A stretch of 50,125 nucleotides of DNA. Source: an uncultured Chitinophaga sp. GTDB lineage: Bacteria; Planctomycetota; Planctomycetia; Pirellulales; UBA1268. The notes beneath the pieces are model-generated. The model worked only from the letters and a program-made list of their open reading frames with translations. It made no database searches and was not told where the DNA came from. Within the stretch, counting starts at the first letter, position 1. Each line of letters starts with the position of its first letter. A program made the translations under genes and the position numbers. This document shows, one piece after another, positions 12,691 through 47,100 of this stretch. The stretch spans positions 1 to 50,125 of the forward strand of contig CAZMOU010000011.1 in assembly GCA_964567835.1 (NCBI GenBank). The letters are read 5' to 3'.

Positions 12691-12949
12691 GATTCGGATC
12701 CCTGCGTCGGTGCTTCGGGTGGCCTTGGGGACGGTGCGGGTGACCGGTGTTGCCGGACCCACCCACCACGATCCGCCAGGGGTATCGGACGGTTCGGGCG
12801 TCAAACTTTGAAGAACCGGCACGACCGGTCGAATCGGGCCCCCCGCACCGGCCCGACGATCGCCTCCCTTGCCCAAGCTTCCGGGACCGCGGCGGCGGTG
12901 GGTCGAATCCCGATCGGTGCCCGACGGCGAGGCGCTGTACAACAGGGTC

Positions 12950-25538: not shown

Positions 25539-25650
25539 GGCGACCGGCGCGGCTCGCGCGGAGTGCCGCCGGGCGCCGGTCCCGCCGCTACAATGCCAGG
25601 GTGGGCACCAGGGCGGTGCCGCTGCGGCGGGTACGGGGCACGAGGGCGAG

Positions 25651-26889: not shown

Positions 26890-27554
26890 AGTCCGAGGAA
26901 GGCGGAGCGGCGCGTGCCGCGGGTCGTTCCCTCTACGTGAACGTGGTGAAACGCTGCGGCGACGCCCTGGTCGCCGCCCTGCTCCTGCTGCTCCTCCTGC
27001 CGGTGCTCCTGCTGGTGTGGGCGGCGGTGGTGGCGGTGCTCGGCACGCCGGCCTTCTATTTCGACACGCGGGCGGGGCGGCACGGGCGTCCGATCGTGGT
27101 GGGGAAGTTCCGTTCGATGCGCGATGCCCGCCGGGCCGACGGGTCGCCGCTTCCCGACGCCGAGCGGCTGGGGGCGTTCGGGCGTTTTCTCCGCCGGACG
27201 AGCCTCGACGAGCTCCCCCAGCTCGTGAGCGTGCTCGTGGGGGACATGAGCCTCGTCGGGCCCCGTCCGCTCCCCGTCCGCTACGTCGCCAGGTACAATG
27301 CCCGACAGGCGACGCGTCTCCACGTGCTGCCCGGACTCACCGGCCTGGCGCAGGTCTGCGGCAGGAACGGCCTCGGTTGGCCGGAGCGCCTCGAACTCGA
27401 CGCCACGTATGTCGATGCGATGGGGCGGTGGTACGCCATGTTCGTCGACCTGGGAATCCTGGCCGCCACGTTCTTCGTCGTCGTCTGGCAGGCCTGCAGC
27501 GGCCGCGGCATCTCCGGCAGCGGGGCGGCGACCATGGAGGAGTTCGACCCGTGA
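26886..27554 (+). CDS. small phosphoglycosyl transferase (bacterial sugar transferase, PglC/WbaP C-terminal type)
   Basis: 222 aa. GTG 26886 overlaps the upstream stop (GTGA). One N-terminal helix, then FRSM, SLDELPQL and GDMSLVGPRP motifs. Confidence 0.85.
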   Translation: MKSEEGGAARAAGRSLYVNVVKRCGDALVAALLLLLLLPVLLLVWAAVVAVLGTPAFYFDTRAGRHGRPIVVGKFRSMRDARRADGSPLPDAERLGAFGRFLRRTSLDELPQLVSVLVGDMSLVGPRPLPVRYVARYNARQATRLHVLPGLTGLAQVCGRNGLGWPERLELDATYVDAMGRWYAMFVDLGILAATFFVVVWQACSGRGISGSGAATMEEFDP

Positions 27555-27880
27555 GCGGACCGACCGAGGATCGCGACAACGCAGGTCCGACTCCGGCACG
27601 CGTGCTCGCCGCCGTCCGCGGGGCGATCGCTGTGGTCTACCATGACACGGCGCGGCCGCCGCGCGACGTGGTCCCCTCCGCCCTGCTGGGATCGGACCTC
27701 GGCCTCGACTCGCTCGACCTGGCACAGGTGGTGGTGCTCCTCGAACGCGAGCTGGGGGCCGATCCCTTCCGCGATCCCCCCGCCGGCGGCACCCGTCCGC
27801 CGATCCGCACCGTGGACGATCTCGTGGCCGTCTACCACGGGTCGCTCCGCGCGGAGGGGACTCCCGACCGACCGACCTGA
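27551..27880 (+). CDS. acyl/peptidyl carrier protein
   Basis: 109 aa. GTG 27551 overlaps the upstream stop (GTGA). Phosphopantetheine-site context LGSDLGLDSLDLAQVVVLLE. Confidence 0.7.
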   Translation: MSGPTEDRDNAGPTPARVLAAVRGAIAVVYHDTARPPRDVVPSALLGSDLGLDSLDLAQVVVLLERELGADPFRDPPAGGTRPPIRTVDDLVAVYHGSLRAEGTPDRPT

Positions 27881-27922
27881 CTCCCGCTCCCGCGACCCGT
27901 TCGCCCCTCCCGGACCCCTGCC

Positions 27923-29281
27923 ATGGACGCCGCGTCCCCAGCCCTGTTCGCCAGTGCTCCGAGCCGACTGGCGGCGTCGATCGACGCCATCGCGGGCATC
28001 GACCCCGGGCGCGTGGCGATCGTCGTCGCCGCGGGGGATGCCGGCCGGAGGGAAGTGCCGTACGCACGGCTGGCGGGCGCGATCGCCGCGCTCGAGGCGG
28101 GCCTCGCCGCGGCCCGTCCGCTCGGCGTCGTGGCCCGGGCCAGGTCGCTCGAGTCGCTGGTGGCGATCGTGGCGGCCTGCGGGAGGATTCCGGTGCCGCT
28201 GGCGCTCGTCGCCGACGACTCGCGCGATCTGGTCGGGGAGTTGCGCGGGTGGATCGAGGTCGGTGACGACCTCGCCGTCCCCTCCGGCGGCGCGGCGCAC
28301 GCGCCCGGTCCGTTCGACGCGGGGGCCGCACGCGTGGTGGTGGCCACCTCCGGCACCAGCGGGCCGCCGAAGCTCGTCGAGCATTCCTGGGACTCGCTCC
28401 TCGCCTCGGCGAGACTGGCGGAGCAGTGGCACGATCGGGGCTGGCTCCTCGTCTACGACGCCACGCGTTGGGCCGGCACGCAGGTCTGGCTCCAGGCGCT
28501 CCTCACCGGCGGACGCGTCGTCGTGCCGGCGTCGCGGGATCCCGATCGGGTCGCCCGCGCCGTGGTGGAGGAGGGGGTGACGATCCTGCCCGCCACGCCC
28601 ACGCTCCTGCGGCGCGTGATCGCGGCCGGCGACAGGGAGCTGGTCTCGAGGATGCGGCTCGACCGGATCACGCTCGGCGGGGAGGCCGCCGACGGGCAAC
28701 TGCTCGAGCAGACCGCGCTGCTCTTCCCCGGGGCGCGGGTCACGCACGTGTACGCCACGACCGAGCTGGGCGAGGTCTTCCGGGTCGGTGACGGGCGTGC
28801 CGGGTTCCCGGCGGACTGGATCGGGCGGACGCTCCCGGGGGGTGTCCGCCTGTCGATGCGCCGCGACGGCGAGCTGCTCGTGCAGCTGTCGCGCGACACC
28901 GCGGAGGTGGCGACGGGCGATCTCGTGGAGCGGCGCGGCGACCGCTACGAGTTCGCCGGGCGCCGCGGCGACGTGATCGTGGTCGGGGGCGCGAAGGTCT
29001 TCCCCAAGCGCGTGGAGGAGGTGCTGCGCGGGGTCCCCGGCGTCGCCGATGCCCGCGTCTACGGCCTCCCCAACGCCATCACCGGCGAGATCGTGGCGGC
29101 CCAGATCGTGGCGGCCGATCCCCTCCCCGCCGGGACGACGCCGGAGTCGATCCGCGCCGCAGCCCTCGCCGCCTGCCGCGCGGGCCTCGAGGCGCACGCC
29201 GTGCCGCGGATCCTCGACTTCACGCGCAAGCTGTTCACGAACCCCTCCGGCAAGGTGTCGCGGCGACCGGTCGGAACCTGA
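27923..29281 (+). CDS. AMP-dependent synthetase/ligase (adenylate-forming enzyme)
   Basis: 452 aa. AMP-binding core VVATSGTSGPPK, then YATTELG, GDLVERRGDRYEFAGRRGD and C-terminal PSGKV. Confidence 0.8.
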   Translation: MDAASPALFASAPSRLAASIDAIAGIDPGRVAIVVAAGDAGRREVPYARLAGAIAALEAGLAAARPLGVVARARSLESLVAIVAACGRIPVPLALVADDSRDLVGELRGWIEVGDDLAVPSGGAAHAPGPFDAGAARVVVATSGTSGPPKLVEHSWDSLLASARLAEQWHDRGWLLVYDATRWAGTQVWLQALLTGGRVVVPASRDPDRVARAVVEEGVTILPATPTLLRRVIAAGDRELVSRMRLDRITLGGEAADGQLLEQTALLFPGARVTHVYATTELGEVFRVGDGRAGFPADWIGRTLPGGVRLSMRRDGELLVQLSRDTAEVATGDLVERRGDRYEFAGRRGDVIVVGGAKVFPKRVEEVLRGVPGVADARVYGLPNAITGEIVAAQIVAADPLPAGTTPESIRAAALAACRAGLEAHAVPRILDFTRKLFTNPSGKVSRRPVGT

Positions 29282-29291
29282 CGGCCACTGC

Positions 29292-30110
29292 ATGCCCATG
29301 ACACGAGCGCCGGAGGATCGGTCGAGTGAAGAGGGATCGCCCGCCGGGGAGTGGTCCTTCACGAGCGTGGTGTCCGGCGGCTCGCGGGGACTGGGGCTCG
29401 CCACGGTGGAGCGGCTGCTCGCCCGCGGCGACCGGGTCGCCACCTTCTCGCGGCGCGGGTCGAAGGGGCTCGAGGAGCTCTCCGCGCGGCATCCGGGCCG
29501 ACTCCTCCACCGTCACCTCGACGCCGCTGACCCGACGGCCCTGCGCCGGTTCGTGGCGGAGGCGGGAGAGGCCTTCGGCCGCATCGATCACTGCGTGGCC
29601 AACGCCGCCGTCGCCACGGAGGGGGTGCTGGCGACGATGTCCGATGCGGACATCGCGGGAATGCTCGCCGTCAACCTCCAGGGGGCGATCGTCCTGGTGC
29701 GCGAGTGCGTCCGCGGGTTCCTCGCCAGACCACCGGCGCCGGCGGGTGCCGGCCGCGCCACGGGGGCGCCTTCGGTGGTCGTCGTGTCGAGCGTGGTGGC
29801 GGCCCGCGGCAGTCCCGGCCTGGCCGTCTACGCCGCCACGAAGGCGGGGCTCGAGGGATTCGCCCGCAGTCTGGCACGCGAACTGGGGCCGCGCGGAATC
29901 CGCGTCAACGCCCTGGCCCCCGGCTTTCTGGAAACCGATCTCTCCGCCACGCTGCCCGAGCAGGACCGGGCGCGGATCGTGCGGCGCACGCCGCTGGGGC
30001 GGCTCGGCGCGCCTGCCGACGTCGTGGGGGCGATCGACTTCCTCACCGGTCCGGGAGCCGCCTTCCTCACCGGCACCACGCTCACGATCGACGGCGGCGG
30101 GGCGACCTAG
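29292..30110 (+). CDS. short-chain dehydrogenase/reductase (FabG-like)
   Basis: 272 aa from ATG 29292. SGGSRGLG dinucleotide motif, NAAV, catalytic YAATKAG. Confidence 0.85.
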   Translation: MPMTRAPEDRSSEEGSPAGEWSFTSVVSGGSRGLGLATVERLLARGDRVATFSRRGSKGLEELSARHPGRLLHRHLDAADPTALRRFVAEAGEAFGRIDHCVANAAVATEGVLATMSDADIAGMLAVNLQGAIVLVRECVRGFLARPPAPAGAGRATGAPSVVVVSSVVAARGSPGLAVYAATKAGLEGFARSLARELGPRGIRVNALAPGFLETDLSATLPEQDRARIVRRTPLGRLGAPADVVGAIDFLTGPGAAFLTGTTLTIDGGGAT

Positions 30111-30197
30111 GGGCGGCGGGTGCCGGACGATGGGGTAGACTTCCATCCACGCCCCATCCGGCCGAGTTCCTCCACGTCCCGTCCCGTCGCGCCAACG

Positions 30198-30857
30198 ATG
30201 AGCGATCGATCCGGTGCCGACGCCCCGCCCTGTCGCGTGCTCATCGTGGGGGCGGGTGGTTTCGGCCGCGAAATCCGCTGGTGGGCCAGGGATGCCTGGC
30301 AGGGGACACGCACGGTCATCGCCGGCTTCCTCGACGCGGACCCGTCCCGCGGCCGCGACGATCTGCCCATCCTCGGCGATCCCGACACCTACCGACCGGG
30401 CCCCGACGAAGCCTGCCTGCTCGCGGTGGGAATCCCGCTGGTGCGCCGCAGACTGGCGGAGGGCCTCCTCTCCCGCGGCGCCAGGTTCGTCTCGCTCGTC
30501 CATCCCACCGCCATCGTGGCGCCGAGCGCCCGCATCGCACCGGGGGCGGTCATCTGCCCCTCGGCGGTGGTGAGCGACGCCGCCCGGATCGGTCCCTGTG
30601 CGCTCGTGAACTACCACGCCTCGGTGGCCCATGACGCCGCCGTGGGGGCCTTCGCCGTCCTCTCGCCGTACGCGGCCCTGGGCGGCGGGGCGTGCGTGGG
30701 GGAGGACGCGTTCCTGGGGCTCCACGCGTCGGTCGGTCCCGGGCGGACGCTCGGCGACCGCAGCAAGGTGAGTGCGAACTCCTGCGCCCTCGCCGACGTG
30801 CCCCCCGATTCGCTCGTCCATGGTGTGCCCGGCCGCGTGACGAGGATCGTTTCCTGA
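30198..30857 (+). CDS. NeuD/PglD-family hexapeptide-repeat sugar acyltransferase
   Basis: 219 aa from ATG 30198. Rossmann-like VLIVGAGGFGREI followed by left-handed-helix repeats (IAPGAVICPSAVVSDAARIGPCALVN...). Confidence 0.8.
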   Translation: MSDRSGADAPPCRVLIVGAGGFGREIRWWARDAWQGTRTVIAGFLDADPSRGRDDLPILGDPDTYRPGPDEACLLAVGIPLVRRRLAEGLLSRGARFVSLVHPTAIVAPSARIAPGAVICPSAVVSDAARIGPCALVNYHASVAHDAAVGAFAVLSPYAALGGGACVGEDAFLGLHASVGPGRTLGDRSKVSANSCALADVPPDSLVHGVPGRVTRIVS

Positions 30858-30906
30858 CCGTCCCCCCGCGCGGGCCTCGGTCGCTTGGCCACCGTGAGTC
30901 CCTGTC

Positions 30907-32049
30907 ATGGCTCCCATCCGGGTCGCGGCCCACGTCGATGTGCGCTACACCACGCGCCGGCCGACCGGCGTGGACAAGCACATCGCGCGCATGGTGCACG
31001 GGCTCGCCGGGCGGCCCGGTTTCGAGGTGACGGTCGTGGCTCCGCGCGGACAGCTTCCGGGGGGTGACCTCCCGGCGGAGAGCAGCCTCCACGGGCTTCC
31101 CGTCAGGGGTCTGCCACTGTCCAACCGGGCGGGACGGCTGTGGTGGTCCGTCAGCGACCGGCCGCCGATCGACCGCTTCGTGCCGGGGATCGATTGGGTC
31201 TGGTCGCCGCAGGAACTGTGGGCGCCGGGAGGGGGGGCACGGACGGCGGTCACCATCCACGGCGCGACCTACTTCGAGCCCTCCTATCCCCGCGCCGCCT
31301 CGGCGTGGGCCAGGTTCGAGCGGCTGCGGCTGGGCCGATTCCTCGAACGGGTCTGCCGCCGCGCCGATCTCGTCCTCCCTGTCTCGCCCTACCTGGAGCG
31401 CTTCCTCGTCTCCCGTTTCGGCCTCGATCCGGTCCGGTCGGTGGTGGTGGGGAACGGCGTCGACGGGGCGTTCTTCTCCTCCGGGCAGGCGGCGGCCGTG
31501 GACGGGAGCCACGATCCCGACCGGCTCCTCGTCGTGGGGGGACTGAACGACTGGGACGGCGGCGGGCGGGTGCTCGCCTGCGCCGACGAACTCGCGCGCC
31601 GGCTTCCCTCGATGGCCATCGACGTGGTGGGCACCCTCGACGACGCGGCGGTGGTGGCGGCGGCCGCGCGGCGCGCGAACGTGCGGCGTCTCGGCTACCG
31701 TCGCCCCGCCGAACTCGCCGCGATGATGCCGGGGTATCTCGCCCTGCTCTACCTTCCCAACGTGGAATCGTTCGGCATGGTGGCGCTCGAGGCGATGGCC
31801 GCCGCCCTGCCGGTGATCGCCTGCCGGCTCACCGCGGTGCCGGAGACGGCCGGCGACGCGGCCCGGTACGTGGACGAGGAGCGTCCGGCGGCGGTCGTCG
31901 ACGCCGTCGAGGAACTCCGCGACGATCCGAGGCTGCGCGCCTCGATGGTGCGGAGGGGCCGGGAGCGTTCCCGCGGATGGACGTGGGACGCGTGCGTCGA
32001 TCGGCTGGCACGGGCGCTCGCCGCGCCGCAGGCCGGGGGGGGGCCATGA
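30907..32049 (+). CDS. GT-B glycosyltransferase (family 1/4 type)
   Basis: 380 aa. C-terminal EX7E region ESFGMVALEAMAAALPVIA. Confidence 0.8.
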   Translation: MAPIRVAAHVDVRYTTRRPTGVDKHIARMVHGLAGRPGFEVTVVAPRGQLPGGDLPAESSLHGLPVRGLPLSNRAGRLWWSVSDRPPIDRFVPGIDWVWSPQELWAPGGGARTAVTIHGATYFEPSYPRAASAWARFERLRLGRFLERVCRRADLVLPVSPYLERFLVSRFGLDPVRSVVVGNGVDGAFFSSGQAAAVDGSHDPDRLLVVGGLNDWDGGGRVLACADELARRLPSMAIDVVGTLDDAAVVAAAARRANVRRLGYRRPAELAAMMPGYLALLYLPNVESFGMVALEAMAAALPVIACRLTAVPETAGDAARYVDEERPAAVVDAVEELRDDPRLRASMVRRGRERSRGWTWDACVDRLARALAAPQAGGGP

Positions 32050-33202: not shown

Positions 33203-34450
33203 ATGACCGGACCCGTCCCCCCGCCGCGCGTCCTGCTCGTGTCGAGCACGCTCGACGACGACGGCGGCATCCCCGTGTGCGTCGGGCAACTCGCCGGCGC
33301 CCTGGCCGATCTCGGGATCGACGTCGTCGTCTCCGGACAGTGCACCGGCGAGCCGGCGGCCGCGGTCCGCGCCGTCGCCGGCCATCCGCGCGTGACCGTC
33401 GAGGCGTTCCACGAGCCCTGGTCGCTCGCGGGACAGTGGCGCGCCGCGCGGCGGATGCGCCGGCTGGTCGGTCGTCTGGCGGAGTCGGCCCGGCGCGAGC
33501 GACGCGGTCTGGTGGTCCACCTCCACGGCGTGTGGGTGGCGACGATGACCGCGGCCGCCGCCGCCGGGCGCGAGGCCGGGGCATCGGTCGTGGTCTCCCC
33601 CCACGGCATGCTGCGGCGCGAGGCGTTGCGGAAGAGCCGGTGGCGCAAGATGGCGGTGTGGTGCGGGGGGCTCCGCCGCGAGGTGGCCGCGGCCGAGACG
33701 CTCCATGCGACGAGCCCCGACGAGGCGGAGGATCTCCGCGCGCTGCTTCCCGGGTGCCGGCCGCGCCTGGTGCCGCTCGGCGTCACCCCGCCGGCAGACA
33801 CGGCGCGCCGGCGCGACCCGGCCGCACCGCGCCGTGCCGGCTATCTCGGGCGCATCCTCCCCATCAAGAACCTCGACACCCTGCTGCGGGCCTGGCAGCA
33901 TGCCGCGCCGCCGGGGTGGCGGCTGTCGATCGACGGCCCCGGGACGGAGGCCATGGTCGCCGGCCTCCGCGACCTGGCATGGCGCCTCGGCGTCGGGGAT
34001 CGCGTCGACTTCGGCGGCGCGGTGCCGTTGGCGGCGCTCGGCGACCACTTCTCGACGCTCGATCTCTTCATCCTCCCCTCCCGTTCCGAGGCCTTCGCGC
34101 TGGTGGTGGGCGAGGCCCTGGCGGCGGGCGTGCCGGCGATCGTCACGACGGCGGCACCGTGGGAGGGGGTCGTGGCGCGGGGCTGCGGCTGGAGTGTGCC
34201 ACCGGGAGAACCGGAGCTCGCGCGGGCGATCGCCGAGGCGACGGCGCTCGACCCCGGCGCGCTCGCCGCCCGTGGCCGCGCCGGTCGGGAGTGGGTCCGC
34301 GGCGAGTATTCCTGGCCCCGGATCGCCCGTCGCCATCTCGACGAGCTCTACGGCCACGCCGCCGCCGGCGACGATCGGCCCCTCCTTGTCTCGTCGACGG
34401 CCACAGGCGATGCTGTCGGCAGTTTTCACAGACCCCCGGACATCCCATGA
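33203..34450 (+). CDS. GT-B glycosyltransferase (family 1/4 type)
   Basis: 415 aa from ATG 33203. An alternative GTG 33146 would give a GTGA overlap with the upstream stop. RVLLVSSTLDDDGGIP N-terminus and LPSRSEAFALVVGEALAAGVPAIV. Confidence 0.75.
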   Translation: MTGPVPPPRVLLVSSTLDDDGGIPVCVGQLAGALADLGIDVVVSGQCTGEPAAAVRAVAGHPRVTVEAFHEPWSLAGQWRAARRMRRLVGRLAESARRERRGLVVHLHGVWVATMTAAAAAGREAGASVVVSPHGMLRREALRKSRWRKMAVWCGGLRREVAAAETLHATSPDEAEDLRALLPGCRPRLVPLGVTPPADTARRRDPAAPRRAGYLGRILPIKNLDTLLRAWQHAAPPGWRLSIDGPGTEAMVAGLRDLAWRLGVGDRVDFGGAVPLAALGDHFSTLDLFILPSRSEAFALVVGEALAAGVPAIVTTAAPWEGVVARGCGWSVPPGEPELARAIAEATALDPGALAARGRAGREWVRGEYSWPRIARRHLDELYGHAAAGDDRPLLVSSTATGDAVGSFHRPPDIP

Positions 34451-35286
34451 ACCTGCGTCGAGCCGTCATCACCGCGGCTGGTCACGGCCGTCAGGACCAC
34501 CCTCTGCAGCGGCTCGTCGATCGCGACGGCGAGGTCCGCTCCGCCCTCGGGATCATCGTCGACGAGGCGATCGATGCCGGGGCGGAGGAGATCGCCGTGA
34601 TCGTGCGCCCCGGCGACGAGGCGGCGTTCCTGGCCGCCATCGACCGCCGTCCCGCCCGCCTCGAGCTGATCCCGCAGACGAGCCCCGACGGCTACGGTGC
34701 CGCGGTGCTGCTCGCCCGCGACTTCGTGGGTGACGAGCCGTTCCTCCATTTCGTCGGCGACCATCTCTACGTCAGCGACGCCGGGAGCCGCTGTGCGCGT
34801 CAACTCGTCGAGGCGGCCCGCCGCGAGGCCTGTGCGATGTCGGCGGTGCAGCCGACGCGCGAGAGCATGCTCCCCTGGTTCGGCGCGGTCGGCGGGCGCC
34901 GCGTCGCGGGGTCCGACCGTCTCTACGAGATCGACACCGTCCTCGAGAAGCCCACGCCGACCCGCGCGGAACAGGAACTCGTCGTCCCCGGGCTGCGTGC
35001 CGGACATTACCTCTGCTATTTCGGCATGCACGTGCTGACGCCGACGATCTTCACGCTGCTCGCCGAGACCGATGCCGAGGGGAGGCGGACGCTCTCGGGC
35101 GCCCTGGGCCGGCTGGCGCGCCAAGAACGCTACCTGGCCCATCAGGTCCGCGGCAGCCGCTACGACCTCGGCCTGCCCTACGGCCTCCTCACGGCCCAAC
35201 TGGCACTGGCGCTCGCCGGGCGGGACCGTGCCGATGTCCTGGCCCGCATCGTCGAACTCCTCGCCCGGCAGCCGCAGGCCTCATGA
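34447..35286 (+). CDS. GalU-like sugar-1-phosphate nucleotidyltransferase (divergent)
   Basis: 279 aa. ATG 34447 overlaps the upstream stop (ATGA). AVITAAGHGRQDHPL replaces the usual GxGTRxLP loop. VLEKPTP motif as in GalU-type enzymes. Confidence 0.6.
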   Translation: MNLRRAVITAAGHGRQDHPLQRLVDRDGEVRSALGIIVDEAIDAGAEEIAVIVRPGDEAAFLAAIDRRPARLELIPQTSPDGYGAAVLLARDFVGDEPFLHFVGDHLYVSDAGSRCARQLVEAARREACAMSAVQPTRESMLPWFGAVGGRRVAGSDRLYEIDTVLEKPTPTRAEQELVVPGLRAGHYLCYFGMHVLTPTIFTLLAETDAEGRRTLSGALGRLARQERYLAHQVRGSRYDLGLPYGLLTAQLALALAGRDRADVLARIVELLARQPQAS

Positions 35287-38200
35287 GCAGGCTCGTCGCC
35301 ATCATCGACGCCGCCGATCCGGCCGTCCGCGACCGGTCGATCGACGAGGCCTGTCGGGGGCTCGGCCCGCGCGAACTCCTCGCCGAGGCGGCCGCGGTCG
35401 ACGCGCACCGTCGGGAGTGCAGGAACCTCTACCGTCGTGTGCGGGGGTTGTTCTTCCTCGCCGCGATCCACCGCTACCACCTGCCGGCGGCGCTCGAACG
35501 GCCTCCGGTCCGATCGGCCGACGGCTTGATCCCCGCCCCGGCGGTGCACCATCTCCTCGGGCGGCGTTTCGAGGAGGCGATCGACCTCCTCCTCGAGTGC
35601 GTCCGTGCGGCGGGCCCGTCGCCCGCGCTCTCGAGCGCCCTGGCGGTGGCCTACCGGGAACTCGGGCTCCAGACGCTCGCCAATCAGGTCCGGCAGTCGG
35701 TGCGATCGATCCGGGGCAACCAGTGGATGTTCCGTGTCGGCCACCCGGCCGATCAGCCCCTGCGGATCCGGCGGGAACTCCTCGGCGGCGGCGCGGGGAG
35801 GCCGTATCCGGTCCTCCACGAATCGACGCCGGTGCGCATGGACCTCTCGCACGCCGGCTGGAGCGACATCTTCTTCCTGGGGATGGATTGCCCCGAGGCG
35901 GCCCGCGTGCTCAACGTCTCGGTCGACCTGGGCGTGCACGGTCGCGACGCGGCGCCGCGGCCGCCGGTCGAGGCCTTCCTGCGCGTCATCGACGAGCCCC
36001 TCCTGCGGCTCACGAGCATCGACCTCGACGCCACCGCCGACATCACCGACCTGGCGGAGGTGTTCGACTTCGGGCGGGATTATCTCGGGCTGCTCAAGGC
36101 CGCCGTGATCGCCAGCGGCATCATCCCCCCGGGGATCGAGGGATCGGGCGAGACGCTCGCCGATCTGCTCGAGGCGACGATCGGGCCCGGTCTGGGGCTC
36201 GAGTTGGTGAGCAGCGTCAACGGCATCCCCAAGGGCTCGAGGCTCGCCGTCTCGACGAATCTCCTCGCTTCGCTCATCGCCGTCTGCATGCGGGCCACCG
36301 GGCAGGCGGGCTCGCTCGAGGGGGGGCTCGACGAATCCGAGCGCCGGCTGGTGGCGGCCCGGGCGATCCTCGGGGAGTGGCTCGGCGGGAGCGGGGGCGG
36401 CTGGCAGGACTCGGGCGGGGTGTGGCCGGCCGCGAAGCTGATCCGTGGCGTCGTGGCCGCCGAGGGGGATCCGGAGTACGGCATCAGCCGTGGCCGTCTG
36501 CTGCCGCGCCACGACCCTGTGCCACTGGGAGCCGACCTGCAGGAGTCGCTCGTCCTCGTGCACGGGGGCATGGCGCAGAACGTCGGCCCGATCCTGGAAA
36601 TGGTGACCGAGAAGTATCTCCTCCGCAGCGAGGACGAGTGGCGGGCGCGGATCGAGGCCGGCGCCGTCCTCGACGAGATCATCGCCGGCGTCGCCGCCGG
36701 GGACGTCCGTCGCATCGCCGCCGCCACCACCCGCAATTTCGCCGGTCCGATCCGCACGATCATCCCCTGGGCGAGCAACGCCTACACCGAGACGCTGATC
36801 GAGGAGGTGGCGGCCCGCTTCGGGGAGCGGTTCTGGGGCTTCTGGATGCTGGGGGGCATGTCGGGAGGGGGCATGGGCTTCATCTTCGATCCGCGCTGCC
36901 GGCTCGAGGGCCAGGAAGCGCTGGCGTCGATCATGGCGGGGGCGAAGCGGCGCTTCGAGGATGGCCTGCCCTTCGCGATGGATCCGGTGGTCTACGACTT
37001 CGCCGTCAACGCCCGGGGCACCTGGTGTGCGTTCCACCGCGGGGCCGACGCGCTCCTCCCCCCCGGCTACTACGCCCGGGTCGTGCCGCAGTTGCTCCGC
37101 TCGTCCCGGCGCGACCTCACCGAGGCCCGGCGGGTGGATCTCGAGTCGTTCGGAGCCGCCTGCCGTACCCGCCCCGAGCTGTCGGGGATGGTCGATACGC
37201 TCTTCGACCGGCTCTTCCCGGCGGCCCGCGAGACGCGGACCGGCGAGCGCGAGTTGCGCGCCGCCCTCGCGTCGCTCGGCTTCGACGAGGTCGAGCACGA
37301 GCAGATCCGCGCCGATCTCCGCGCCGGCCGGATCGGACTGGCCCAGAATCGGCTTCCCGCGTCGATGACGATCGAGGACGTCTCCGACGCCGACGTCGAC
37401 CGCGTGGGCGAGGGGGACGACGCGCATCACCACCGCATCGGCACGGAGGCGATCCGGCGCGGCGAGGCGGCCATCGTCACGCTCGCCGCCGGGGTGGGGA
37501 GCCGGTGGACCCAGGGTGCGGGGGTGGTCAAGGCGCTCAATCCGTTCTGCCGGATCGCGGGGGCGTGGCGCACGTTCCTCGACGTCCACGTCGCCAAGGC
37601 GCGGCGGACGGCGCGGCTCGCCGGCGCGGCGGTGCCGCACGTCGTCACCACCAGCCATCTCACCCACGCGCAGCTCGCCGCCGCCGGGCGGCCGGTGATC
37701 CTCTCCCCCGGCCGGGCGGTGGGGTTGCGCATGGTGCCGATGGTGAGGGACCTGCGGTTCTTCTGGGAGGAGACGGCCCGTCAGGTGCTCGACGAACAGC
37801 GCGAGAAGATGCGGGAGAGCGTCCACGCGGCGCTGGCGGCGTGGGCGGAGCGGGCCGGGGAGGCGAGCGACTACACCGACAACACCCTGGCACAGTGCCT
37901 CCATCCGGTGGGCCACTGGTACGAGGTGCCGAACATGATCCGCAACGGCGTGCTCGCCAGGCTTCTCCGCGAGCACCCCCGGCTGCGGTGGATCATGCTC
38001 CACAACATCGACACCGTGGGGACCGATCTCGATCCGGCGATCCTCGGCCGGCACATGGCCGGCGGCGCCGGACTCTCGGTGGAGGTGATCCCGCGGCACG
38101 TCGAGGACCGGGGTGGCGGGCTCGCGCGGGTGAACGGCCGGCCCCGGCTCGTCGAGGGTCTGGCGATGCCGCGCGAGGACGACGAGTGGCGTCTGCGTTA

Positions 38201-38585
38201 CTACAACACCCTCACCACCTGGATCGATCTCGACGCCCTGCTCCGCACGTTCGGCCTCTCGCGCGACGACGTGCTCGCGGCGGAGCGCGGGGACGACGAG
38301 CGGGCGCGCGTGGCGGCGGCGATCCGCGGTGTCGCCGCGCGGATGCCCACGTACGTGACGCTCAAGGACGTGAAGAAGCGCTGGGGCCACGGCCAGGAGG
38401 ACGTCTTCCCGGTCACGCAATTCGAGAAGCTGTGGGGGGACATGACCGCCGTCGCCGACCTGTCGACGCGCTACTTCGTCGTCCCCCGCGTCCGCGGCCG
38501 CCAGCTCAAGGACGTGGCCCAGCTCGACGGGTGGCTGCGCGACGGCTCCGCGGCGGCGGTGGAGAATCTCGGCGACTGGGACTGA
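35283..38585 (+). CDS. multidomain protein: unknown N-domain + fucokinase-like GHMP kinase region + UDPGP-family (UDP-sugar pyrophosphorylase) domain
   Basis: 1100 aa. ATG 35283 overlaps the upstream stop (ATGA). GHMP-like segments: PVRMDLSHAGWSD, IPKGSRLAVSTNLLASLIA, GGGWQDSGG, LGGMSGGGMGFIF. UDPGP-like segments: IVTLAAGVGSRWTQG and IMLHNIDTVGTD. Confidence 0.6.
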   Translation: MSRLVAIIDAADPAVRDRSIDEACRGLGPRELLAEAAAVDAHRRECRNLYRRVRGLFFLAAIHRYHLPAALERPPVRSADGLIPAPAVHHLLGRRFEEAIDLLLECVRAAGPSPALSSALAVAYRELGLQTLANQVRQSVRSIRGNQWMFRVGHPADQPLRIRRELLGGGAGRPYPVLHESTPVRMDLSHAGWSDIFFLGMDCPEAARVLNVSVDLGVHGRDAAPRPPVEAFLRVIDEPLLRLTSIDLDATADITDLAEVFDFGRDYLGLLKAAVIASGIIPPGIEGSGETLADLLEATIGPGLGLELVSSVNGIPKGSRLAVSTNLLASLIAVCMRATGQAGSLEGGLDESERRLVAARAILGEWLGGSGGGWQDSGGVWPAAKLIRGVVAAEGDPEYGISRGRLLPRHDPVPLGADLQESLVLVHGGMAQNVGPILEMVTEKYLLRSEDEWRARIEAGAVLDEIIAGVAAGDVRRIAAATTRNFAGPIRTIIPWASNAYTETLIEEVAARFGERFWGFWMLGGMSGGGMGFIFDPRCRLEGQEALASIMAGAKRRFEDGLPFAMDPVVYDFAVNARGTWCAFHRGADALLPPGYYARVVPQLLRSSRRDLTEARRVDLESFGAACRTRPELSGMVDTLFDRLFPAARETRTGERELRAALASLGFDEVEHEQIRADLRAGRIGLAQNRLPASMTIEDVSDADVDRVGEGDDAHHHRIGTEAIRRGEAAIVTLAAGVGSRWTQGAGVVKALNPFCRIAGAWRTFLDVHVAKARRTARLAGAAVPHVVTTSHLTHAQLAAAGRPVILSPGRAVGLRMVPMVRDLRFFWEETARQVLDEQREKMRESVHAALAAWAERAGEASDYTDNTLAQCLHPVGHWYEVPNMIRNGVLARLLREHPRLRWIMLHNIDTVGTDLDPAILGRHMAGGAGLSVEVIPRHVEDRGGGLARVNGRPRLVEGLAMPREDDEWRLRYYNTLTTWIDLDALLRTFGLSRDDVLAAERGDDERARVAAAIRGVAARMPTYVTLKDVKKRWGHGQEDVFPVTQFEKLWGDMTAVADLSTRYFVVPRVRGRQLKDVAQLDGWLRDGSAAAVENLGDWD

Positions 38586-38689: not shown

Positions 38690-39982
38690 ATGAGCCGAGC
38701 CGAGCCCGTGCCCTGTCCTCTCTCCGTCTGGGTCGTGAACCCGTTCGACGACCTGCCGGGCGAGGGGCTGCCGCCGCTGCGGTTCTGGACCCTCTGCCGC
38801 GTCCTCGCCGGCAGGGGCCACGACGTCACGTGGTGGTCGGCGGACTGGAGTCACCGGAGGAAGGCGATCCGCTTCCCCCCGCCGCGCGGGGTGCTCGCGG
38901 AGGAGGGGTTCGACGTCCGCCTCGTGCCGGTGCGTCCCTACTCCGCGAACGTGTCGCTGTCGCGCCTGCGCAGCCACCGCGACTTCGGCCGCACGCTCGA
39001 GCGACAGGGGGCGCAGGCGGTGGCCTCGGGCGATCTCGAACGGCCCGACATCGTGATCGCCAGCATTCCTCCGCTCGAGGGAGCGGAGGCCGCGGCCCGT
39101 CTCGCCGCCCGTCTCGATGCCCTCCTCGTCGTCGACGTCATGGACCTGTGGCCGGAGACGTTCCGTCGCCTGCTGCCCGGCCCGGAGTGGTTCCGGGGTC
39201 TCCTGGCACCGCTGCTGCTCGGCGGCATGGAGCGCCGTCGCCGTGCCCTGCTGACCGGTGCCGACGGCGTCTCGGCGGCGACGGAGACCTACGCCCGTGC
39301 CGCCCTGGCCGGTCTGCCGGGCGAGCGAAAGACCCATGTGTGCCACCTCGGCGCCTACATCGAGGAGTATCCGCCGCCGCCGCGCGTTCCGCCGCTCGAC
39401 GATCCGGCCGACGAGGTCCCCCCCGCCGGCCCGCTGGCCTGCGTGTACGCCGGCACGCTCGAGGCGGGCCAGGATCTCGACACCGTCCTGGCCGCCGCAC
39501 GCCGACTCTCCGCCGCCGGCACGGCCGTGGAGATCCATGTCGCCGGCACCGGTCGCCTCGAGCCACGACTGCGAGCGGAGGCCGCGGGCATCCCGGCGCC
39601 GTGCCGTGTGGTGGTCCACGGCCTCCTGCCCCGCGGCGACTACGCCCGCCTCCTCGCGCGTTGCGACGTGGGGATCGTGGCGGTGAAGCCGGAGTCGCTC
39701 GTCGCGGTGCCCTACAAGGCCTGCGACTACGCGGCCGCCGGACTGGCGCTGGTCAACGGCCTGCCGGGCGAGCTCGACGCCATGATCGACGAGCACCGTG
39801 CCGGCCTCGCCTACCGTGCCGGCGACGCCGCCTCGCTGGCGGCCGCGCTCGGCGGCCTCGCCGCCGATCGACGGCGTCTGCTCCTCCTGCGGCAGGGCGC
39901 GCGGCGGCTGGCCGAGGCGCGTTTCGATCGGGAGTCCACCTACGCACGCTTCGCCCGCTGGCTCGAATCGCTCGCGGGATGA
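38690..39982 (+). CDS. GT-B glycosyltransferase (WbuB-like)
   Basis: 430 aa. VWVVNPFDDLPGE N-terminus typical of WbuB-type enzymes. C-terminal VAVPYKACDYAAAGLALV. Confidence 0.7.
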   Translation: MSRAEPVPCPLSVWVVNPFDDLPGEGLPPLRFWTLCRVLAGRGHDVTWWSADWSHRRKAIRFPPPRGVLAEEGFDVRLVPVRPYSANVSLSRLRSHRDFGRTLERQGAQAVASGDLERPDIVIASIPPLEGAEAAARLAARLDALLVVDVMDLWPETFRRLLPGPEWFRGLLAPLLLGGMERRRRALLTGADGVSAATETYARAALAGLPGERKTHVCHLGAYIEEYPPPPRVPPLDDPADEVPPAGPLACVYAGTLEAGQDLDTVLAAARRLSAAGTAVEIHVAGTGRLEPRLRAEAAGIPAPCRVVVHGLLPRGDYARLLARCDVGIVAVKPESLVAVPYKACDYAAAGLALVNGLPGELDAMIDEHRAGLAYRAGDAASLAAALGGLAADRRRLLLLRQGARRLAEARFDRESTYARFARWLESLAG

Positions 39983-39985: not shown

Positions 39986-40960
39986 ATGGAGTGCCTCGTC
40001 ACCGGCGCGGGCGGTTTCGTGGGTCGCGCCGTCATCGAGGCGCTCTCGGAGGCCGGTTGGTCGGGACTCGCCACCGGCCGTGCGGCGCCCGCCGGACTCC
40101 CGCCCGGGTGGCGGGGATGGCAGCGTGACGATCTGCTCGCGCGGCCCGACGCGGCCCGCCCACGGGCGATCGTCCACCTCGAATCGAGGAGCCCCGCGGA
40201 CGACGCCCCGGAGGGCGACGGGGGGATGTTCGACAGGGTGAACGTCGGCGGGACGCGGGAATGGCTCGAGTGGGCGGCGGCGGCCGGCACACGGCGCTTC
40301 GTGCTCGTCGGCTCGATCCTCGCCGTCGTTCCCGCGGACGGTCCGCGTACCGAGGAAGCGCCCCTCGTGGCGGACGATTCCTACGGCGGATCGAAGGCGC
40401 GGGCGGAGGCCGTGCTGCGGGAATGGTGCGCCGCGGACGCCGGCCGCCGGGGGGTGATCCTCCGATCGGCGCCGGTCTACGGGCCGGACGAGCGATCGAA
40501 CCTCCTGCCGTTCGTGCGGCGTGTGATCGCCGGCAAGCCGGTCGTCTTCGGGGAGGGGCGGGCGGTCCGATCGATCGTCTCGCGCCGCAACCTGGCGGCC
40601 GCGGTGGTCTTCGCCCTCTCCCGGGACGCACTCCCGTGCGAGGTGTTCAACGTCGCCGACGCCCGTCCGGTCACGCTCGCCGAGCTCGCGGCGATGGTGG
40701 CGTCCGCGGCCGGCGTCCCAGTGCCCCGGCGGGTGCCCGCGTGGGCCGCCACCCTGGCGGCGCCGGTCGGCGATCTCGCCACGCTGTTGACCGGGCGACC
40801 GATGCCGATCGGCATGTCCCGGCTGCGGGCCTCGCGTGTCTCGATCGACTTTCCCTGCGACCGTCTGGTGGCCGCCGGCTTCCGCCATGCCGAATCGACG
40901 CGCGACGGGCTCGCGCGGATGGTGGACTGGATCCGTTCCTTACCGGATAGTGGGCAATGA
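39986..40960 (+). CDS. NAD-dependent epimerase/dehydratase family protein
   Basis: 324 aa, starting 3 nt after the upstream stop. LVTGAGGFVGRAV and YGGSKARAE (YxxxK). Confidence 0.8.
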   Translation: MECLVTGAGGFVGRAVIEALSEAGWSGLATGRAAPAGLPPGWRGWQRDDLLARPDAARPRAIVHLESRSPADDAPEGDGGMFDRVNVGGTREWLEWAAAAGTRRFVLVGSILAVVPADGPRTEEAPLVADDSYGGSKARAEAVLREWCAADAGRRGVILRSAPVYGPDERSNLLPFVRRVIAGKPVVFGEGRAVRSIVSRRNLAAAVVFALSRDALPCEVFNVADARPVTLAELAAMVASAAGVPVPRRVPAWAATLAAPVGDLATLLTGRPMPIGMSRLRASRVSIDFPCDRLVAAGFRHAESTRDGLARMVDWIRSLPDSGQ

Positions 40961-44158: not shown

Positions 44159-47100
44159 ATGAACGCCCCGTCCTTCGTCCATCTCCACTGCCACAGCCAC
44201 TACAGCCTCCTCGACGGCGCGAGCTCGATCGAGCGGTTGGTGGGGAGGACCAAGGAGCTGGGGATGAACGCCCTGGCGATCACCGACCATGGCAATCTGC
44301 ACGGGGCGCTCGAGTTCTACTCCGCCGCCAGGTCGGCGGGCCTGAATCCGATCATCGGCTACGAGGCCTACATCGCCCCGGGCAGCCGATACCAGAAGGA
44401 CGCCGGCAGCCAGAAGGAATCGAGCTATCACCTCACGCTCCTGGCGCGGGATCGCGAGGGATACGCCAATCTTCTCCAGCTGGCGACGAAGGCCTTCCTG
44501 GAGGGCTTCTACTTCAAGCCCCGGATCGACCGCGAGATCCTCGAGGCCCATGCGGGTGGCCTGATCTGCCTGTCGGGCTGCCTGTCGGGGGAATTCAGCC
44601 GCTCGCTCGTCGGCGTGGGGGCGGACCAGCCGGAGCAGCTGGCGAAGGCCCGCGACGTGGCGGGCTGGTTCCGCCGCGTCTTCGGCGACCGCTACTTCAT
44701 CGAGATTCAGGACAACGGTCTCGCCGTGCAGAGACAGGTGACGCTCGCGGCCCTGGAGCTGGCGCGGGAGATGGGGATCCCTCCGGTCGCCACCTGCGAC
44801 TGTCATTACGTGAACCGCGAGGATGCCGTCGCCCAGGACATCCTCCTCTGCGTGAACACCGGACGCGTCCGCACCGATCCGACCCGGATGAAGATGGACT
44901 CGACCGAGTTCTATCTGAAGAGCCCGGCCGAGATGCACGACGCCTTCGGCGAGCTCGGCGGGGAGACGACGCGGGCCGCCGTGACGCGGAGCCAGGAGAT
45001 CGCCGACGGGGTTTCGATCGAGCTCGATCTGGGAAAGCGGCACTTCCCCGGCTTCGACGTGCCAGGCGGGCTGTCCGCGTCGGAGGAACTCCGCCGCCTC
45101 TGTCTGGAGGGGCTGCACGAGCGCTACGCGGGTGTGGCGAAGCGCTGGCAGCCGGGCCCGGACGGGGCTCCCGTGCTCCACGACCAGGTGATGGAACGAC
45201 TCGACCGCGAGCTGGGGGTGATCGACACCCTGGGCTTCTCCAGTTACTTCCTCATCGTCTGGGACTTCGTCCGCCACGCCCGCGAGCAGGCGATCCCCGC
45301 GGCGGCCAGAGGCTCCGGCGTCGGCGCGCTCGTGGCCTACGCGCTCTACCTCTCGCACGTCTGCCCGCTCGAGTACGACCTCCTCTTCGAGCGTTTCCTC
45401 GACGTGAATCGCAAGGAGGCCCCCGACATCGACATCGACTTCTGCAAGGAGCGGCGCGGGGAGGTCATCGAGTATGTGAAACGGAAGTACGGCGCCGCCA
45501 ACGTGGCCCAGATCGGCACCTTCGGCACGCTCGCCGCCCGGGCCGCCATCCGCGACGTGGGCCGGGCCATGGGCATGCCGGTGGCGCGGGTCGACGCGAT
45601 CGTGGCCCTCGTTCCGGACCAGCTGGGGATCTCCATCGAGGAGGCGTCCGCCCCCGGAAGCCAGCTGGCGGCGGCCTGTGACGCCGACGGCGAGGTGCGC
45701 GAGCTCGTCGATCTGGCGGGGAGGATCGAGGGCCTGGCCCGCAACGTCGGCACGCACGCGGCGGCGGTGGTCATCGCCGACCGTCCGTTGGTGGAGTACG
45801 TCCCGCTGCAGCGCGTCACCGGCAAGGAGGAGGTGATCACGCAATGGGAAATGGGGGACGTCGAGCGCGCCGGTCTGATGAAGATGGACTTCCTCGGCCT
45901 GCGGTACCTCACCGTGGTGACCAAGGCGATCGACATCATCGCCGAGACCACCGGCACGCGCCCCGATCCGCTGGCCTTCCCGTTGGAGGACAAGCCGACC
46001 TTCGACCTCCTCTGCCGCGGCGAGACGAAGGGCATCTTCCAGCTCGAGAGCGGGGGCATCCGCGACCTCCTGCAGCGGATGAAGCCGGACCATTTCCGCG
46101 ACATCGTCGCCGTCAACGCGCTCTACCGCCCCGGGCCGCTCGAAGGGGGGATGGTCGACGACTACGTCGCCGTGAAGCACCGTCGCAAGGCGGCCGAGTA
46201 CCTCCATCCGGTGATGAAGGACGTGCTCGAGGAGACGCACGGTGTGATGGTGTACCAGGAGCAGGTGATGCGGATCCTCGAGCGCCTCGGCGGCATCGAG
46301 CTCTCCAGCGCCTACACCTGCATCAAGGCGATCAGCAAGAAGAAGCTGGAGATCATCGCCGCGTTCCGGGAGAAGTTCGTCGCCGGGGCGAGGGCCCGGG
46401 GTCTTGCGGGAGGCGAGGCGCAGGAGCTCTTCGGACTCATCGAGAAGTTCGCCGGATACGGCTTCAACAAGAGCCACTCCACGGCCTACGCGCTCCTCGC
46501 CTGGCAGACCGCCTACCTGAAGACCCACCATCCGCTCGAGTTCATGGCGGCGCTCCTCTCGGGGGACATCACCGGGCGCAACTTCAAGAAGAAGGACGCG
46601 CTCGTCGAGCATGTCGAGGACTGCCGCAGGATGGGGATCGAGGTCGCCCCGCCCGACGTCAACCGGTCGCGTGCCGACTTCACCGTCGCCGAGGGGCGGA
46701 TCCTCTTCGGTCTGGCGGCGATCAAGGGCTGCGGCGGGCAGGCGGCGGCGGCGATCGGCGCGGAGCGGCTGGCGAACGGTCCCTTCCGCGACCTCGACGA
46801 TTTCTGCGGCCGTCTCGACTCGAGCGTCGTCAACAAGACGGCGGTGGAGAGCCTGGCGAAGGCGGGTGCGCTCGACGGCCTCGTCGGCGACCGCTCCCTG
46901 GGCGTGAAGCGTGCGACCCTCCTGGCGGGGATCGAGAAGGCGCTCGCCGCCGGCGCCGCCCGCGCCGCCGACCGGAAGAGCGGCCAGAAGAGCCTCTTCG
47001 ACGCCTTCGACGCGGCGCCGCCGCAGCCGGTGCCCGCCATGCCCACCGCGTCGGCTCCCGACGTGGCCCCGCTCTCCGACATGGAACTCCGGTCGTACGA

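Follow-up and report, generated by a model that had tools for sequence, protein, structure and literature searches.

GHMP sugar-1-kinases are known to feed UDPGP-family enzymes: in plants, GlcAK, AraK, GalAK or GalK act ahead of USP, and in humans GALK2 acts ahead of AGX1/UAP1. During peptidoglycan recycling, the anomeric MurNAc/GlcNAc kinase AmgK is followed by MurU, a small NTP_transferase-type MurNAc-1-phosphate uridylyltransferase; AmgK is an APH-type phosphotransferase, not a GHMP kinase, and the AmgK/MurU pair is unfused and has no UDPGP domain. Kinase-pyrophosphorylase fusions such as FKP of Bacteroides fragilis are widely used in one-pot chemo-enzymatic nucleotide-sugar synthesis. In the kinase half of FKP, the transition state is stabilised by Arg592 together with a metal, Asp762 has been proposed as the general base, and Glu751 is essential, the E751A and D762A variants being inactive; the glycine-rich loop 712-720 binds the triphosphate through a segment whose Ser719 and Ser720 lie at the metal, and fucose is contacted by Trp599, Asp601, Thr602, Gln761 and Gly759 (PMC11982464). 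The zebrafish glucuronokinase/UDP-GlcA pyrophosphorylase is described as a kinase-pyrophosphorylase fusion converting the free sugar to the UDP-sugar (PMC3938481). Here, we analysed a stretch of 50,125 nucleotides (hereafter, the window; positions 1 to 50,125 of the forward strand of contig CAZMOU010000011.1, assembly GCA_964567835.1, recorded as an uncultured Chitinophaga sp. and placed by GTDB in the Planctomycetota, Pirellulales, UBA1268), which encodes a 1100-residue protein (hereafter, the target) joining an orphan N-terminal domain, a fucokinase-like GHMP kinase and a UDPGP-type pyrophosphorylase, and overlapping with an upstream gene for a GalU-like nucleotidyltransferase (the partner). 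The best reading of the target is the conversion of a sugar to its 1-phosphate and on to a UDP-sugar on one polypeptide. All functional statements below are drawn from sequence and predicted structure.

Domain architecture of the fusion protein

The target open reading frame (ORF) starts with ATG and lies in a window with a G+C content of 72.7%. Codon-position GC (0.76/0.54/0.87 across the stop-to-stop frame 34734-38585), together with a sliding frame plot that shifts into the target frame at approximately position 35280, identifies this ORF as the coding frame. Homologues share this first residue, which confirms the start at 35283. The same full-length protein is present in thousands of independent assemblies, which rules out an artefact of frameshift or assembly.

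An earlier note, made from the letters of this DNA alone, had proposed a three-part architecture consisting of an N-terminal domain without recognisable relatives, a fucokinase-like GHMP kinase and a UDPGP pyrophosphorylase. Profile searches and the predicted fold confirmed this proposal, and all the motifs quoted there were located at their given positions or at most one residue away. Matches to GHMP (FKP model) and to UDPGP were both significant, and a GHMP fold was predicted for the central region. The coordinates of all features are collected in Table 1.

Table 1. Position of the fusion gene, its domains and motifs, and the adjacent genes within the window.
Feature	Position	Strand	Residues, correspondence and basis
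Partner gene, GalU-like sugar-phosphate nucleotidyltransferase	34447..35286	+	279 amino acids; translationally coupled to target
Start/stop overlap of partner and target	35283..35286	+	ATGA; tcATGAgc; ...TCATGAGC
Target ORF	35283..38585	+	1100 amino acids + stop; N-domain, GHMP kinase, UDPGP pyrophosphorylase
N-terminal all-alpha domain	35283..35807	+	residues 1 to ~175; kept in all clades
GHMP-kinase domain, fucokinase-like	35808..37052	+	residues ~176-590; PRK13412, family profile, Foldseek
Kinase motif I, PVRMDLSHAGWSDIFFL	35829..35879	+	residues 183-199; R185 = FKP R592, W193 = W599, D195 = D601
Co-varying kinase site W193	35859-35861	+	family alignment, 346 members
Kinase motif II (phosphate loop), IPKGSRLAVSTN	36225..36260	+	residues 315-326
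Co-varying kinase site R320	36240-36242	+	family alignment, 346 members
E365	36375-36377	+	just upstream of GSGGGWQDSGG; = FKP E751
GSGGGWQDSGG	36387..36419	+	residues 369-379; Q375 = FKP Q761, D376 = D762 (general base)
Kinase motif III, LGGMSGGGMGFIF	36849..36887	+	residues 523-535
Co-varying kinase site M526	36858-36860	+	family alignment, 346 members
Helical linker and N-terminal helical part of UDPGP module	37053..37457	+	residues ~591-725
UDPGP (PF01704) catalytic domain	37458..38582	+	residues ~726-1100
Nucleotide-binding loop, IVTLAAGVGSRWTQG	37473..37517	+	residues 731-745; aligned with UGPase VVKLNGGLGTSMG (hidden Markov model)
IMLHNIDTVGTD	37992..38027	+	residues 904-915; aligned with UGPase (F)LSNADNLGA; N908 and D910 invariant
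GT4 glycosyltransferase, downstream	38690..39982	+	Pfam; lineage-specific
NAD-dependent epimerase/dehydratase	39986..40960	+	Pfam

The AlphaFold2 model of the full chain, calculated from an alignment of 69 sequences, had a mean pLDDT of 90.6 and a pTM of 0.89, values which point to a fixed arrangement of the domains. The N-terminal domain, when modelled separately, was likewise all-alpha (pLDDT 85.6), with helices placed within residues 3-142 in both models. In agreement with the earlier note, which had found nothing familiar in the first 180 or so residues, no Pfam model matched this domain at E ≤ 10 and Foldseek gave no match against PDB and BFVD (best E ~0.8); the family profile produced faint TPR-like matches only (E > 0.004).

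Identity and active site of the kinase domain

Because the Pfam GHMP models gave nothing for the window protein, homology of the central domain was shown via NCBIfam, profile searches of PDB and the predicted fold. The NCBIfam model PRK13412 (FKP) matched residues 181-509 with an E value of 9.4e-15, through the kinase part of the model only, and with a score of 53.4 bits against a cut-off of 721. The phmmer search against PDB retrieved B. fragilis FKP (5YYS, 9IIT and 9IIP) at E ~2e-6, while a family profile built from 14 sequences (A1) matched FKP over residues 175-546 at E 4.5e-21 and heptose kinases marginally (E 0.003-0.03). Foldseek analysis of the AlphaFold2 model aligned the fucokinase part of FKP (9iip) with a TM-score of 0.81 (root-mean-square deviation 3.7) and full-length FKP with an E value of 1.2e-17, and the heptokinase WcbL with TM-scores of 0.82-0.83 (0.82 for 4usk). 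The central region of the model has the two-lobed GHMP fold. Among the 14 family members, PF00288 and PF08544 matched only two and PF07959 matched none. Its fold and catalytic residues, but not its Pfam score, place the domain in the GHMP superfamily.

Residues were mapped from the HMMER alignment to FKP, with a numbering that reproduces the residues of the published study exactly. Segment PVRMDLSHAGWSD was found at residues 183-195, VLNVSVDL at 209-216, and IPKGSRLAVSTNLLASLIA spans residues 315-333. The earlier note had reckoned with a possible loss of the ATP-binding residues; none of those that act on ATP and sugar in FKP is missing, and they are invariant. In addition to the correspondences in Table 1, the counterparts of FKP G759 and Thr602 are G373 and I196, respectively. 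R185, E365, D376, S324, T325, W193, D195, Q375 and G373 are invariant in 83 clade-A proteins (the clade of the window protein, see below) drawn from at least six phyla, and I196 is conserved in 82 of them. In motif II, R320, A322, S324 and T325 align with FKP G715, G717, S719 and S720, respectively; the loop is of canonical length and keeps P316, G318, S319, S324 and T325 of the consensus PxGSGLG(S/T)S.

Motif II had been called degenerate in the earlier note. It does deviate from the consensus; decay, on the other hand, finds no support, as GSRLAVST is an invariant signature of the clade, present in all 83 sequences, with an Arg that co-varies with motif III. Across the family alignment, 328 of 346 members combine W193 and R320 with a residue other than Arg at position 526, and 14 combine Gly or Ala at 193 with G320 and R526, M526 being replaced by Arg in the clades with Gly at 320. 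Of the 346 members, 345 have an Arg in one of the two motifs, II or III, and none has it in both. Judging from this alignment, the swap may represent a relocated phosphate-binding Arg. Such co-variation is expected of a working phosphate site, and a pseudokinase is unlikely, given that the motif II Arg co-varies with the loss of the motif III Arg.

UDPGP pyrophosphorylase domain

The C-terminal domain was recognised by PF01704 with 32.7 bits (E 4.2e-8), above the gathering cut-off of 22, as were 12 of the 14 family members, and it belongs to the UDPGP family by Pfam's own threshold. The family profile matched eukaryotic UDP-glucose pyrophosphorylases (UGPases) with E values from 1e-26 to 1e-20 and UDP-GlcNAc pyrophosphorylases more weakly. 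Foldseek returned UAP, AGX and UGP structures with E values from 2e-14 to 1e-12 and target-normalised TM-scores of 0.51-0.61. The preceding linker region consists of predicted helices at residues 594-680 and 713-725, and UAP/AGX chains align from profile residue ~650-690 onwards. The hidden Markov model alignment paired LAAGVGSRW (733-742) with LNGGLGTSM, HPVGH (874-878) with YPPGH, HNIDTVG (907-913) with SNADNLG, and EDRGGG (941-946) with ADVKGG of the UGPases. G737, S740, R741 and W742 of the nucleotide-binding loop are invariant, as are, within clade A, GH(878), N-x-D(910), D(942)-R-G-G and K1028; Arg943 stands in place of the Lys of the UGPase D-V-K-G-G motif.

The GalU-like partner gene

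The earlier note had described the target as translationally coupled within a glycan operon, without mentioning that the coupling partner is a GalU-like nucleotidyltransferase. The coupling is real: the ATG of the target (35283-35285) overlaps the TGA of the partner (35284-35286), and according to the frame plot the chain of upstream genes is linked by ATGA or GTGA overlaps at 32046, 33146, 34447 and 35283. The operon, in contrast, is not the conserved unit. In 74 of 84 clade-A loci, the partner gene immediately precedes the target gene on the same strand, with 45-84% identity to that of the window (tblastn), and 7 of the 10 loci without a match have less than 1 kb of upstream sequence. All-against-all clustering of the ORFs from the 84 loci identified the partner as the sole recurrent neighbour, the other large clusters being shadow ORFs inside the target gene. 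Its stop overlaps the target start by 4-8 bases in the window, in loci L002, L003 and L088 and in the P0035 contig. The GT4 gene downstream of the target, by comparison, recurs with 61-76% identity at only 7 of the 84 loci and the epimerase gene at 6, both confined to close planctomycete relatives. The conserved unit is the two-gene cassette of the GalU-like nucleotidyltransferase and the target, and the glycan operon is its lineage-specific local setting.

The partner was matched by Pfam NTP_transferase (E 3.3e-7) and by TIGR01099 (GalU; E 1.9e-23, 83 bits against a cut-off of 327), and its closest PDB entries were GalU/YngB (E 1e-18). The consensus of the partner family keeps GDH and EKP, the latter corresponding to GalU E201/K202 and also present in the window partner. 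The GXG(T/S)R loop reads G-x-x-Q-R in most of the 74 partners. In the window partner it is degenerate (AAGHGRQDHPLQ, GHGRQ), and the corresponding segments read GAAQH in L003 and GKTPQ in L005; the loop Arg is displaced or lost in the Planctomycetia subclade of the window. In GalF, the substitutions M15/H16 lower the activity (PMC4643126).

Distribution and diversity of the family

The earlier note suggested surveying how widely this domain order occurs. It is not a rare fusion: a collection of 5.8 billion proteins contained more than 8000 full-length relatives (590 clusters at 50% identity, E < 1e-30), and at least 578 species-representative genomes carry the family. The best 80 loci belong to Planctomycetota, Verrucomicrobiota, Chloroflexota, Armatimonadota, Acidobacteriota, Myxococcota and others, and other members bear the labels Nitrospirae, Bacteroidota, Bacillota and Omnitrophota; these taxon labels were taken from the record titles of metagenome-assembled genomes (MAGs). 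Database entries are named 'hypothetical protein' or 'UTP--glucose-1-phosphate uridylyltransferase', and, by JGI, 'UDP-N-acetylglucosamine pyrophosphorylase/galactokinase/mevalonate kinase-like predicted kinase'. Both domains are thus already visible to automated pipelines.

Clades were told apart by identity and motifs. Clade A shares 54-100% identity with the window protein, clade B (Nitrospirae type) ~45% and clade C ~30%, the last having the more canonical motifs GSGLAVST, LNGGESTRYG and SSNDNL; the Omnitrophota forms are separate from all three. Pairwise identities within clade A (L005-L084, ~1100 residues) are 70-76% within phyla and 65-69% between them, with a minimum of 60.6%. This remarkably flat profile may reflect either extreme constraint, for example that of an obligate complex, or recent horizontal spread. 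Nearest neighbours come mostly from the same phylum; the few cross-phylum pairs, such as L002/L013 (82%) and L026/L054 (85%), may be due to gene transfer or to mis-binned MAGs.

Some MAG labels look doubtful, such as those of L006 (Candidatus Kuenenia stuttgartiensis) and L067 (Akkermansia muciniphila); the target proteins of L006 and L005 share 98% identity, and the L005 contig is labelled Planctomycetia. The cultured Hymenobacter volaticus carries the cassette on a 242-kb megaplasmid (NZ_CP095065.1; L089 11035-15318), among PAS and two-component genes. Its partner is annotated as 'sugar phosphate nucleotidyltransferase', and the target region is 52% identical. This target copy may be a pseudogene, as it was recovered in four tblastn pieces and has no coding sequence in the annotation table.

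Sister clades

The operons of clade C (P0283 contig; L085 6664-14321) comprise a GmhA-like SIS isomerase, a HAD hydrolase, the kinase-UDPGP fusion and a GT2 synthase, which in L085 is fused to a GH5 cellulase; in the P0283 contig a GH16 gene follows. By analogy, this layout looks like an NDP-heptose-like pathway feeding a processive glycan synthase. In Omnitrophota, protein P0144 (2318 amino acids) joins ROK, the N-domain/GHMP/UDPGP architecture and an IMPase-family phosphatase in one fusion, P0166 (2939 amino acids) combines the same architecture with ROK, and upstream of P0134 lies a giant protein carrying UDP-glucose/GDP-mannose dehydrogenase domains. Copies of clade B have no GalU-like partner. 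In two Nitrospirae contigs of this clade (L090 6001-14861 and L091 1520-7491) DUF362, methyltransferase and IMPase genes lie downstream, the IMPase being 2-3 genes away from the target copy, and another Nitrospirae copy has PMM and ManC upstream. These contexts place the family firmly in nucleotide-sugar synthesis, and they suggest that some of its members start from sugar phosphates, via a bisphosphate intermediate and a phosphatase.

Giant sugar-metabolism fusions are a more general feature of Candidatus Omnitrophota (P0144, P0166 and P0271-P0278), with Pfam domains including ROK, PGM, F-bisphosphate aldolase (PF01116), PF00485, PF06560, transketolase-type and 6-phosphogluconolactonase domains.

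Genomic neighbourhood

Gene calls for the neighbours are heuristic. The window cluster (21883-32049 and 5159-8324) resembles a polysaccharide locus of the di-N-acyl-trideoxyhexose (bacillosamine) type, encoding a Wza-like exporter, a PglF-like 4,6-dehydratase, a DegT aminotransferase, an acyl-AMP ligase, an SDR protein, a PglD/NeuD-type acetyltransferase, three GT4 proteins and an AsnB-like amidotransferase. Another PglF-like gene lies further upstream, as does one for a WecA/MraY-type initiating transferase. SIS, HAD, IMPase and GT2 genes were sought in the window and none was found. Near the 84 clade-A loci, the search for the same four families yielded only an IMPase in L002 and, at a distance of several kb upstream, SIS genes in L003, L004 and L011; an NDP-heptose-type set of SIS and HAD phosphatase alongside the target is absent from the window and is not adjacent to the target in the 84 loci.

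Neighbourhoods of individual clade-A copies are diverse: lipopolysaccharide core genes in L003, two-component regulators and the IMPase gene (13254-14009), which abuts the target copy, in L002, PGM genes in the P0035 contig, and a sugar symporter, GH2 and sulfatase in L088, a catabolic setting that looks like salvage. Elsewhere in the window, a 1091-residue protein with a C-terminal CHAT (caspase-like) domain is encoded at 12812-16087 (+), with a MraZ-like ORF (11719-12429) on the strand opposite to it, and DnaE (Pol III alpha) at 44159-47833.

Proposed function and alternative explanations

With moderate confidence, we regard the target as a two-step activator, an anomeric sugar kinase followed by a UDP-sugar pyrophosphorylase, with the GalU-like partner as a second transferase or modulator. 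With ATP as phosphate donor, the central GHMP domain would phosphorylate a pyranose sugar at its anomeric hydroxyl, and the C-terminal UGPase-like domain would convert the resulting sugar-1-phosphate and UTP to a UDP-sugar. Both catalytic modules would be held in one rigid body by the helical linker and the orphan N-domain, itself helical. The enzyme would act as a unit with its translationally coupled partner, which could be a second sugar-1-phosphate nucleotidyltransferase or, in the lineage of the window with its decayed catalytic loop, a GalF-like non-catalytic or regulatory subunit. The product would probably feed the adjacent GT4 and epimerase of the polysaccharide cluster. The domain identities, the fold, the conserved catalytic residues and the conserved pairing of the two genes are shown by the analysis; both activities, UTP as the nucleotide, formation of a complex and the identity of the sugar are what we infer from these comparisons. 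Because the kinase pocket keeps nearly all the fucose-contacting side chains of FKP, a fucose- or galactose-like substrate is a lead, and nothing more. A role in nucleotide-sugar supply is consistent with the gene contexts, namely the GT4 and epimerase genes of the window and of 6-7 related loci, the Omnitrophota dehydrogenase, the PMM and ManC of Nitrospirae, the GT2 of clade C and the salvage-like setting of L088. Salvage of a free sugar, as proposed in the earlier note, is not established, since distant clades with SIS, HAD or IMPase phosphatases and ROK suggest sugar-phosphate substrates there. In the clade of the window, which has no such partners and carries the fucokinase-type Trp and the R320 signature, a free sugar is the more likely substrate.

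Several observations weigh against this two-step scheme. The Pfam GHMP models PF00288 and PF08544, which the earlier note had singled out for checking, did not match the window protein at E ≤ 10, either whole or as three segments. Motif II has R320 and A322 instead of two canonical glycines. K1028 is the candidate for the catalytic Lys of UGPases (equivalent to K367 of potato UGPase), with the order of motifs judged by eye and in a region, past residue ~1000, where the alignment is unreliable; the single-sequence PDB search with the C-terminal 161 residues returned only a chance match to glycogenin. A simple scheme of kinase and pyrophosphorylase needs no second nucleotidyltransferase, although nothing else at the locus is as conserved as the partner. 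A salvage enzyme would not usually be expected to share as much as ~66% identity between phyla. The recurring phosphatases, IMPase in L002, two Nitrospirae contigs and the P0144 fusion, and HAD in clade C, hint at sugar-phosphate substrates in some members. Finally, the literature search retrieved no paper on this architecture and no characterised member.

The phosphatases bear on a rather unlikely alternative, in which the target would bypass a mutase as in NDP-heptose synthesis: a sugar 6- or 7-phosphate would be converted to the 1,6- or 1,7-bisphosphate, a separate phosphatase would take off the distal phosphate, and the UDPGP domain would then form the UDP-sugar, de novo rather than by salvage. 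The SIS/HAD/target/GT2 operons of clade C follow the logic of GmhA, HddA, GmhB and HddC, the ROK and IMPase domains of P0144, the ROK of P0166 and the IMPase genes abutting the L002 copy or lying near two clade-B copies would fit such a route, and the heptose-7-phosphate kinase WcbL fits the fold as well as fucokinase does. However, the window has no SIS, HAD or IMPase gene and the exceptions within clade A are limited to the L002 IMPase and the distant SIS genes. The kinase sequence is far nearer to fucokinase than to the heptose kinases, as the profile E values given above show, and the clades partnered with phosphatases or isomerases have no W193 and carry G320/R526, as opposed to W193/R320 in the clade of the window, so that the substrate pocket differs between them. 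It is very doubtful, in turn, that the target is essentially a UDP-glucose pyrophosphorylase in which the GHMP-like domain and the N-terminal one would serve regulation or scaffolding without catalysing a reaction (a pseudokinase sensing sugar or ATP), with the partner as a GalF-type modulator. The closest solved relatives of the C-terminal domain are indeed UGPases, NCBI names the relatives accordingly, the kinase part departs from the GHMP consensus in motif II and is missed by the Pfam GHMP models, and the partner loop is degenerate in the lineage of the window, as in GalF. All alignable catalytic and sugar-contacting residues of FKP are nevertheless invariant across phyla, which is not expected of a decayed site; the Arg swap between motifs II and III would keep a phosphate ligand; and most partners retain Q-R at the T-R position, as the family consensus retains EKP.

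Barely credible is a mobile accessory system of a kinase and two nucleotidyltransferases, for instance an anti-phage system or a generator of nucleotide signals, in place of a glycan-precursor enzyme. The self-contained two-gene cassette does occur in unrelated neighbourhoods, including the Hymenobacter megaplasmid copy among two-component genes, and some nearest neighbours come from another phylum. Against this, no PADLOC model matches the target or the partner, tblastn found no phage copy, the nearest relatives of both catalytic domains are sugar-activating enzymes and the sugar-binding residues are retained, the neighbours are often genes of glycan biosynthesis or sugar metabolism, and the sequence is extremely conserved, whereas defence genes usually evolve fast. 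A quite doubtful extension of the two-step scheme would make the nucleotidyltransferase and kinase-UDPGP cassette a hitherto unrecognised, widespread heteromeric 'nucleotide-sugar factory' of Planctomycetota, Verrucomicrobiota, Chloroflexota, Acidobacteriota, Armatimonadota, Bacteroidota and Nitrospirota, with its high between-phyla identity arising from an obligate channelling assembly. It would turn a fucose-like 6-deoxy- or galacto-configured sugar into a UDP-sugar, or make two NDP-sugars through its two transferases, by a donor chemistry undescribed in bacteria, and the family would be a modular alternative to phosphomutase-dependent synthesis, to which other clades add SIS, HAD, IMPase or ROK.

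If the two-step scheme holds, a second, unrelated architecture probably yielding UDP-sugars would add a useful biocatalyst and would fill a gap in our view of how sugar donors are supplied for envelopes and exopolysaccharides in large environmental phyla known mostly from MAGs. Thousands of entries named 'UTP--glucose-1-phosphate uridylyltransferase' or 'hypothetical' hide a kinase half. The most interesting leads are why the sequence is almost unchanged from phylum to phylum and what two nucleotidyltransferases are for. The locus also raises the questions of why a co-translated GalU-like subunit is constant, what role the N-domain has, and whether the sister clades generalise the heptose 'bisphosphate' route to other sugars.

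Comparison with known systems

The NDP-heptose pathway (GmhA SIS, HddA/WcbL GHMP kinase, GmhB HAD phosphatase and HddC) resembles the target in the succession of an anomeric GHMP kinase and a nucleotidyltransferase, in the SIS and HAD genes of the clade C operons and in the fold of WcbL (TM 0.82). It differs in the SIS and HAD components, which are missing from the clade of the window, in the marginal similarity of the heptose kinases and in the family of the transferase. The partner, for its part, is GalU-like and keeps E-K-P, and in the lineage of the window its loop Arg is lost or displaced, as in GalF (M15/H16). It is, however, only remotely similar to GalU, whose PATK and PKE lysine region reads LPLQxLVDRDG in the partner, and it is tied to the kinase-UDPGP gene and not to gal or wca operons.

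Similar in logic are the salvage pairs of kinase and UDPGP enzyme (the plant kinases with USP, human GALK2/AGX1 and Leishmania USP), in which the same two families would catalyse the same consecutive steps. These are separate eukaryotic proteins, whereas the target is a fusion, is bacterial, has the N-domain in addition and comes with a GalU-like third component; by this analogy, it reads as a Rosetta-stone fusion of a GHMP-kinase/UDPGP pair. The bacterial salvage route of AmgK and MurU follows the same logic, with an anomeric kinase ahead of a uridylyltransferase. The zebrafish fusion likewise combines a GHMP sugar-1-kinase with a UTP-dependent pyrophosphorylase, but its transferase is described as homologous to bacterial nucleotidyltransferases and not to the UDPGP family (PMC3938481); it has no kinship to the target beyond the superfamily level.

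FKP shares with the target the presence of a GHMP anomeric kinase and a sugar-1-phosphate nucleotidyltransferase domain on one polypeptide, and its kinase half is the nearest solved relative, with the catalytic R/E/D and the fucose-contacting W/D/Q residues conserved. The contrast that the earlier note drew between them, a reversed order and a different transferase family, is borne out. The kinase comes last in FKP and precedes the transferase in the target; the FKP transferase is a PF07959 GFPP domain with a beta-helix, that of the target a PF01704 UGPase-type domain, PF07959 being absent from the window protein; and FKP uses GTP, while the nucleotide of the target is presumably UTP. The target adds the orphan N-domain, the motif II signature GSRLAVST and an obligate separate GalU-like gene. 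By model cut-off, domain order and transferase family alike, it is not a member of the FKP family. Its architecture is uncharacterised, very widespread and equipped with an obligate third component and an orphan domain.

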